Assembly: GCA_965262775.1 (NCBI GenBank)
Contig: CBDHFT010000006.1
Coordinates: 257,325 to 321,324, forward strand
Direction of reading: 5' to 3'
Length of the DNA: 64,000 nt
From: Alphaproteobacteria bacterium
GTDB lineage: Bacteria > Pseudomonadota > Alphaproteobacteria > JASGCL01
Of the stretch, positions 61,052 through 62,004 are shown one piece after another; within the stretch, counting starts at the first letter, position 1, and every line of letters starts with the position of its first letter. Below the pieces are notes generated by a model. It had not been told where the DNA came from and did no database searches. It saw only the letters and a program-made list of their open reading frames with translations. Position numbers and translations under genes: made by a program.

Positions 61052-61429
61052 TTAAATTTCTATATCTTCTTGATTTTGAAATTGTGGTGAAGAAACTTTA
61101 TAAACAGCAGGCTTTTTTTCTTTGATGAAATCTAAAATTTTATTCATATCATCGTCATCAATAGTGCCAAGCGTTTTATCTTTATCAATTCTTCCTGAGT
61201 ATTCAACTATGGCTGCTGTAGCACAACCGACATAACTATCTTTTTTCAACATCTCTTTTGGGTATTTTGATTTTTCTAATTTTATATAGGGATAATAATT
61301 TTCATTTTCATTATTACTTGTTATAAGTGCAAAATAACATAATCCTTCATCGCTTTTGCCAAGAAAAATATGTCTGTGCTTATCTCTGTATCTAACAAAG
61401 AAAACATCCCCGACCCTTGCCATAATCAA
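61052..61429 (-). CDS. Small protein with a divergent MazF/PemK-like pattern (candidate toxin)
   Basis: The 125-aa product carries GDVFFV, KHRHIFLG, FALITS, YPYIKL and LGTIDDDDMNKILDFIKE. These are colinear with the MazF landmarks GDLIWV, GHRPAVVL, CVPCTT, YPFEVVL and KGTVAPEELQLIKAKINV. The assignment is by eye only. Confidence 0.45.
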   Translation of the reverse strand: MIMARVGDVFFVRYRDKHRHIFLGKSDEGLCYFALITSNNENENYYPYIKLEKSKYPKEMLKKDSYVGCATAAIVEYSGRIDKDKTLGTIDDDDMNKILDFIKEKKPAVYKVSSPQFQNQEDIEI

Positions 61430-61446
61430 TTTCCCTAATATTATTT

Positions 61447-62004
61447 TTAAACAGCAATATAGGCGGAGCGGCTGGCAATATCGTTGATGGTAGATTTTTT
61501 AACTGATGAATCATAAAAATCCCTGTAATCCATGTCAGCATAATTGGCGTTGCCACGTGCGTTCCATGCCTTATACCATGCAGGGTGGTCATGAGAAATT
61601 GTGGTTAATTCTGAAAAGTTTTTATCTTTATAAGTCTGCCAAATATCATCTAATATTTTTTTACTGTCGCTTGATAGAAATTGCCCAACATTATTTGGCA
61701 TGGCGGTGATAATAATTTTATTATCTTGTCTTTTTATTGGTAAAGGATAGCCGTCCGCCAGTCCCGCAGAGGTGTTATTAATAATATCAAGAGCTTCTTG
61801 ATTAATTGGACCAAATTTTAAGGCCTTATAACACCCGCCAAACATAGGGGTTAAGGTTTTATTCATGCTGGCAACATCAGCAAAGAACAGCAGTTTCATG
61901 GCTTGATGAATGCCAAGTTCTTTGTTATTTGTTTTTTGCGCTAAATAGCAAATGCCATCAATAATGGCTTTTTCGCTACAGCCAAATATCATCATCTTTG
62001 TCAT
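61447..62004 (-). CDS. Panacea (DUF4065, SocA/GepA-like) domain protein (candidate antitoxin)
   Basis: The 185-aa product contains HQAMKLLFFADVASMNKTLTPMFGGCYKALKFGPINQEALD, which fits the DUF4065 core pattern. It ends 17 nt upstream of the small ORF. Confidence 0.6.
   Translation of the reverse strand: MTKMMIFGCSEKAIIDGICYLAQKTNNKELGIHQAMKLLFFADVASMNKTLTPMFGGCYKALKFGPINQEALDIINNTSAGLADGYPLPIKRQDNKIIITAMPNNVGQFLSSDSKKILDDIWQTYKDKNFSELTTISHDHPAWYKAWNARGNANYADMDYRDFYDSSVKKSTINDIASRSAYIAV

Follow-up and report, generated by a model that had tools for sequence, protein, structure and literature searches.

Two genes on the minus strand, which we call panA and panT, make up a compact AT-rich islet in the 64-kb stretch of alphaproteobacterial DNA that was analysed (positions 1-64000, hereafter the window), and the coordinates of the genes and of the features around them are collected in Table 1. 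The first gene encodes a protein of 185 aa from an ATG start and the second a protein of 125 aa when read from its first possible start, a TTG, with 17 nt between the two reading frames; both were found just as described in an initial annotation that had been made from the letters alone. For panT an alternative start, the ATG at 61423, would give a product of 123 aa (MARVGDV...) and a spacer of 23 nt. We regard this ATG as the probable true start, since it is favoured by gene callers, by the alignment of orthologue N-termini and by the start used in a public protein collection (P0001). A Shine-Dalgarno-like motif, AGGGAA, can be read 7-8 nt ahead of it. The 185-aa start of panA aligns residue for residue with the start of its orthologue.

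Table 1. Coordinates of the panA-panT islet and adjoining features in the window.
Feature	Position	Strand	Basis
panT, divergent MazF/PemK-fold putative toxin	61052..61429	-	PF02452 (sub-threshold), hhalign, AF2, Foldseek
panA-panT spacer with AGGGAA motif	61430..61446	-	read from sequence
panA, standalone Panacea-domain (DUF4065/SocA-like) antitoxin gene (predicted)	61447..62004	-	PF13274, phrog_1281, start conserved in orthologue
Islet-specific leader and putative promoter region 5' of panA	62005..62062	-	sister-genome homology stops at ~62062, close behind the porin hairpin
Hairpin (intrinsic terminator) that ends the upstream porin gene; bounds the islet on its upstream side	62081..62117	-	inverted repeat I4, conserved in the sister genome (L013)
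Hypervariable AT-rich cassette	61005..62062		45-75% DNA identity to the sister genome (L013), sliding window

The islet has a GC content of 0.338 as against 0.446 for the window, which ranks among the lowest 2.8% of windows of the same size, and GC3 is 0.36 in panA and 0.21 in panT compared with 0.44-0.49 in the flanking genes. The AT-richness first remarked on for this two-gene block is borne out by these figures, and the atypical GC and GC3 point to a horizontal origin of the cassette. On the upstream side the porin gene ends in a hairpin with 16-nt arms that are 94% complementary and a 5-nt loop, followed on the minus strand by a T-run, and the block does lie directly behind this terminator, as had been proposed. 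Its neighbours in the window are PP-loop/TilS, GT9/TPR glycosyltransferase and porin genes, and in the syntenic sister genome described below OmpA, HU and MetK genes are found further out. The lack of a nearby mobility gene, also part of the initial annotation, held for the ~6 kb around the islet.

Signals for expression of the pair were sought in the DNA on either side. A promoter scan gave no sigma-70 site on the minus strand in 62005..62062, and no recognisable Shine-Dalgarno sequence precedes the window's panA in 62005-62040; the panA mRNA may thus be leaderless or carry a very short leader. In the panA allele of the sister genome, unlike that of the window, a clear AAGGGGG motif is found 7 nt ahead of the ATG. 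A search near panA for operator-like inverted repeats and for flanking direct repeats returned nothing convincing besides the porin terminator. At the far end of the islet the glycosyltransferase gene and panT are convergent, with their ends 20 nt apart (61032-61051; the corresponding spacer in the sister genome is 45 nt). No terminator-like hairpin was found between these two ends (61032-61051), so panAT transcripts would run antisense into the glycosyltransferase gene.

Comparison with the closest genome, the 1.63-Mb chromosome of an uncultured alphaproteobacterium (OZ241918.1), sets the islet sharply apart from its surroundings. The flanks are 95-98% identical in DNA and the glycosyltransferase 96.6% identical in protein, whereas PanA and PanT share 63% and 43% of their residues, respectively, with the sister proteins. 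The boundaries of the divergent cassette are abrupt, falling in the last codons of the glycosyltransferase gene on one side and just downstream of the porin terminator on the other, and the sister and window alleles are both AT-rich. With these two alleles in hand, the pattern fits either exchange of the cassette for a divergent allele or diversification over a long time at one and the same site. A separate divergent segment was seen in the adjoining porin gene (62162-63247, Porin_4-like), the central and 3' part of which, especially at 62250-62900, has 52-65% DNA and 61% protein identity to its sister counterpart; the 5' end, the extreme 3' end and the terminator of the same gene, together with the upstream paralogous porin, are 80-99% identical. 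Some 190 conserved bases (approximately) lie between this hypervariable porin segment and the PanAT islet.

Other AT-rich patches occur elsewhere in the window. At 10333-11989 on the plus strand a DUF6996/DUF6997 protein of 270 aa and then an N6/N4 DNA methylase of 280 aa are encoded with 1 nt between them, a pair that is probably a type II restriction-modification system. In the same patch, on the minus strand at 12023-12730, two adjacent small ORFs of 90 and 129 aa have no Pfam match and could be another toxin-antitoxin-like or defence-associated pair. Between ORFs that resemble cysD and cysN by eye lies an AT-rich ORF for a protein with an FkbM-type methyltransferase domain (28060-29013, plus strand); it overlaps the end of the first of the two. 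No tRNA or tmRNA genes were detected in the whole window.

Identification of PanA is straightforward. Its Pfam match to PF13274 (SocA_Panacea) scores 65.4 bits against a cutoff of 25.7 and runs from residue 36 to 144, covering model positions 2-113 of 113. The Panacea/DUF4065 call made for the 185-aa protein was therefore right, and the core sequence then quoted for the domain falls within the Pfam-aligned stretch. PanA also matches phrog_1281 (E 1.5e-21); the PHROG families it matches are of unknown function. SocA is the founding Panacea protein, and against the NCBIfam equivalog SocA_antitoxin (NF047745) PanA reaches 25.2 bits (E 1.1e-5), the cutoff being 190. No accessory domain was found among those looked for in PanA (HTH, zinc-binding, PAD1 and Phd-C), and judged by its domain content it is a domain-only protein of the 'noNTD' class of Kurata et al.

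Evidence on PanT comes from several methods, each of which returned a faint signal. The top Pfam match is PF02452 (PemK_toxin), with 22.8 bits against a gathering score of 23.1 (E 1.1e-4) and over model positions 36-106 only. The family that had been put forward for the 125-aa protein is thus its best match in Pfam, but the match stays 0.3 bits under the gathering score. PemK is likewise the top or second Pfam match, in the same register, in three distant family members (E 1e-3 to 6e-3); in all, a sub-threshold PemK match is seen in 4 of 8 members of the PanT family and no PemK match in the other 4. Against PHROG, PanT matches a 'MazF-like growth inhibitor' (E 0.007). MazF was not found among PDB sequences by phmmer or hmmsearch with PanT or its family profile. 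The PDB sequence matches that did appear, to ribosomal S13 and Hsp70 lid fragments, are at chance level and come from a common 'LG.I..dD..KIL' helix, and a Pfam match of PanT to Ribosomal_S13 (E 0.03) was judged spurious on account of the same helix.

Profile-profile alignment gave a clearer picture. As reference we used E. coli MazF, Kid, B. subtilis EndoA, ChpBK and S. aureus MazF, five sequences that were confirmed as PF02452 in every case (5/5, best E 3e-38). In hhalign the 8-member PanT family aligned with this reference over 102 colinear columns at E 1.7e-4, and each of the two PanT clades did so alone (E 4e-3 and 9e-4), as against E 0.2-0.75 for the controls, which were reversed profiles, the PanA family and CcdB. 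Most of the MazF landmarks listed in the initial annotation were reproduced, GDVFFV pairing with GDLIWV, HRHIFLG with HRPAVVL and ALITS with VPCTT; the exception was YPYIKL, which is offset by 2 residues. The last of the proposed pairings, LGTIDDDDMNKILDFIKE with KGTVAPEELQLIKAKINV, was recovered as well.

Structure prediction pointed the same way. An AF2 model of PanT, built on an alignment of 8 sequences only, has a pLDDT of 83.3 and a pTM of 0.81; the single-sequence prediction, at pLDDT 47, was unusable. When the model was searched against the PDB with Foldseek, 10 of the top 20 matches were chains of seven MazF-family toxin entries (prob 0.38-0.94, TM 0.39-0.64, E 0.15-2), the MazF-family matches coming from M. 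tuberculosis, another mycobacterium, D. radiodurans and K. pneumoniae. In BFVD the model is closest to entries named 'PemK-like protein' (prob 1.0, E 1.4e-3) and 'Endoribonuclease'. In both collections, then, the model finds MazF/PemK proteins best, in keeping with what had been anticipated for the 125-aa product. Taken singly these lines are weak, yet they converge on MazF in the same register while the controls are negative, which argues that the resemblance is not coincidental. On the sequence and model evidence a MazF/PemK fold of PanT, the SH3-like barrel of MazF and Kid with its C-terminal helix, is well supported, although formal membership of the Pfam family is not, and a very divergent PemK-like fold, as first suggested, is still what best explains the Pfam, hhalign and AF2/Foldseek results together.

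PanT also departs from MazF in ways that bear on its likely activity. The hallmark motif of the MazF beta1-beta2 loop, P-x-x-G-x-E-Q-x-G-x-R-P, is absent, with only the Arg matched; hhalign places a 7-residue deletion in this region of the window protein, and its relatives have unrelated sequence there. The PanT family has an invariant motif of its own, [DN]S[YF][VI]GC, and in the model the C-terminus carries a helix and a final strand beyond those of MazF. R19 and T37 of the window protein align exactly in hhalign with R29 and T52, the catalytic Arg and Thr of E. coli MazF. Across the family the Arg position is occupied by R in 4 members and is K or shifted in the rest, including P0007 and the Fibromonadales clade, and the Thr position is T or N (Asn in several), the residue that follows it being always Ser/Thr. 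Since the equivalents of R19 and T37 are not invariant across the family, we consider RNase activity of PanT plausible only.

The family to which PanT belongs is very small. An exhaustive phmmer search of 1.84 billion cluster representatives yielded only 4 relatives (P0004-P0007), to which a profile search added three more distant ones from termite-gut Fibromonadales (P0008-P0010). Scans of genomes and metagenomes returned only further copies of the same two clades, a word-seeded homologue search with PanT retrieved only PanT itself, and tblastn of phage and plasmid collections gave no match to it. The known family thus stands at under about 15 sequences, from uncultured alphaproteobacteria and termite-gut Fibromonadales.

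Wherever the family occurs it has the same partner. In all 20 of the fetched loci with upstream sequence a panA lies directly 5' of panT on the same strand, 1-25 nt away, and the PanA partners of all PanT relatives match PF13274 too. panA and panT are thus passed on together as an obligate pair, and the antitoxin-first order that had been inferred from the window alone is that of every locus in this survey. The loci come from two phyla and represent at least four contexts: the porin/glycosyltransferase setting of the window and its sister genome, a pyrH-frr-uppS-cdsA setting, a head-tail-connector gene with PAP2/dxr and, in Fibromonadales, a PIN toxin pair with GT2. With contexts so varied and the pair constant, the two genes of the cassette must move together. 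PanA and PanT identities co-vary across the loci (r = 0.93), a correlation dominated by clade structure, and both ORFs are intact and co-conserved across the two phyla despite identities of 20-40%, which speaks for purifying selection on the pair. In an assembly labelled Hydrotalea sp. (GCA_030054115.1, our loci L005/L006) PanAT adjoins a phage-like head-tail connector (PF12236) and two unannotated ORFs, a hint that at least one PanAT copy may lie in a prophage or GTA-like region. In one Fibromonadales locus (L009, 2630-3299) PanAT is directly downstream of a DUF6364 and PIN toxin-antitoxin pair, forming a small toxin-antitoxin cluster.

The suggestion that a pairing of this kind may be undescribed had to be abandoned, since PanA paired with PemK/MazF-like toxins is on record and backed by experiment (Kurata et al. 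2022, PNAS, PMC8832971). That study lists PemK among the CDD toxin domains found next to PanA, and it validated as translation inhibitors two PanTs that are MazF-like by HHpred, from P. moraviensis and B. ruminantium. Domain-only PanAs were found to form complexes with, and to neutralise, MazF-like PanTs that inhibit translation (PMC8832971), and a standalone Panacea was found to contact and neutralise its toxin directly (Ernits et al. 2023, PMC10440598). Clusters pT5, pT6 and pT9 of Dataset S1 combine a noNTD PanA, antitoxin-before-toxin order and a MazF/PemK annotation, and include alphaproteobacterial and termite-gut members (PMC8832971). The islet resembles these clusters in its domain-only Panacea protein directly upstream of a toxin of ~120 aa. 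It is also like the Kurata PanAT systems in general, in which it often takes profile or structure methods to reveal the MazF kinship of the toxin and which are chromosomal, patchy and prone to horizontal movement. It differs from T5, T6 and T9, as far as these are known here by their accessions and annotation, in that the present PanT forms a separate and very small family; given only 4 relatives among the 1.84 billion representatives, HMMER detects nothing that would tie it to the published clusters. The missing beta1-beta2 loop motif and the additional C-terminal helix and strand are further differences. Judged by sequence searches, novelty is confined to the toxin's own sequence family, outside of which HMMER detects no relative in that collection.

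Set beside the classical MazEF, PemIK (Kis-Kid) and EndoA systems, the islet has in common a predicted toxin fold with colinear sequence, an Arg and a Thr aligned to R29 and T52, and an antitoxin-first operon with a short spacer. Unlike MazEF and PemIK, it carries a Panacea-domain antitoxin rather than one of the AbrB/MazE or Kis type, and its toxin stays under the PF02452 gathering threshold and is without the P..G.EQ.G.RP loop.

Our preferred reading, which we consider probable, is that of a chromosomal, horizontally acquired PanA-PanT type II toxin-antitoxin operon with the antitoxin gene first. By all that its sequence indicates, the islet would be a real PanAT module, and probably a functional one. 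By analogy with the validated MazF-like PanTs, PanT would be a toxin that arrests growth, most likely by blocking translation as a sequence-specific endoribonuclease. Catalysis may proceed via R19 and T37/S38, the counterparts of MazF R29 and T52 in the alignment, and, without the canonical beta1-beta2 loop, the substrate-binding surface would be expected to differ from that of MazF. PanA would neutralise PanT by direct protein-protein binding via the Panacea domain itself, as other domain-only PanAs do. The cassette may persist through addiction and/or be favoured by selection as an element of the abortive-infection type, and it could diversify or be exchanged rapidly between strains.

The least distant alternative, though still an unlikely one, is that PanT keeps the MazF/CcdB barrel but is no RNase, and acts as a CcdB-like gyrase poison or on a new target. 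Loss of the P..G.EQ.G.RP loop would suit this reading, as would Arg and Thr equivalents that vary within the family, a [DN]S[YF][VI]GC motif and extra C-terminal elements without MazF counterpart. CcdB of the F plasmid CcdAB system shares the broad SH3-like barrel superfold with MazF. Against a gyrase poison, profile similarity between PanT and CcdB is lacking (hhalign E 0.21, as against 1.7e-4 for MazF), the top 50 Foldseek matches include no CcdB structure, and the exact alignment of R19 and T37 in the window protein favours an RNase.

A bolder variant, which we think improbable, combines a loss of the canonical RNA-binding/catalytic loop, leaving PanT to act by a non-MazF target or chemistry, with a role for the cassette in immunity, as an allelic element that is exchanged by recombination and that phages keep under diversifying selection. 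Its appeal lies in the setting, as the cassette adjoins a hypervariable porin, likely a phage receptor, in a streamlined 1.6-Mb alphaproteobacterium, and if true it would make the locus a minimal 'defence hot-spot' without mobility genes. The initial annotation had also entertained a defence module. This idea found no support in PADLOC-DB v2, where a search with both proteins returned 0 families at E <= 10, and with no PADLOC model for either protein a defence role is speculation.

We hold it very unlikely that the islet is no toxin-antitoxin pair at all, being instead some other two-gene module (phage-derived or regulatory) or a decaying remnant in which the likeness to MazF is coincidental. 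Sceptics may fairly note that every MazF line is singly weak or sub-threshold, that defence databases gave no match and the PHROG families matched by PanA have no known function, and that several PanA-adjacent candidates were non-toxic in E. coli, one of the MazF type among them (Kurata et al., PMC8832971). Coincidence is nevertheless hard to reconcile with four independent weak lines that lead to the same family in the same register with negative controls, and decay is hard to reconcile with two intact ORFs co-conserved across two phyla at 20-40% identity.

The last alternative, a SocAB-like type VI system in which PanA would be a ClpXP proteolytic adaptor for PanT rather than a sequestering antitoxin, and PanT a SocB-like inhibitor of replication (DnaN), draws on an alphaproteobacterial host like the Caulobacter crescentus of SocAB, a Panacea protein as first gene in an order that fits an adaptor and the SocA_antitoxin match at E 1.1e-5, and is the most improbable of all, for a score of 25.2 against 190 reflects generic Panacea similarity only, PanT matches no SocB-like model and resembles MazF instead, and direct complex formation is the general PanA mechanism (Kurata et al., PMC8832971).

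If the preferred reading of a PanA-PanT operon is correct, no new principle is at stake, as both the architecture and the function are already catalogued and validated (Kurata et al. 2022; Ernits et al. 2023). What the locus would add to the known partners of the hyperpromiscuous Panacea antitoxin is a toxin family of the MazF fold that is both rare and highly divergent. It also provides a clean natural example of a toxin-antitoxin cassette at 43-63% protein identity between flanks that are 95-98% alike in DNA, and such divergent cassette alleles could serve the study of how toxin-antitoxin specificity co-evolves.
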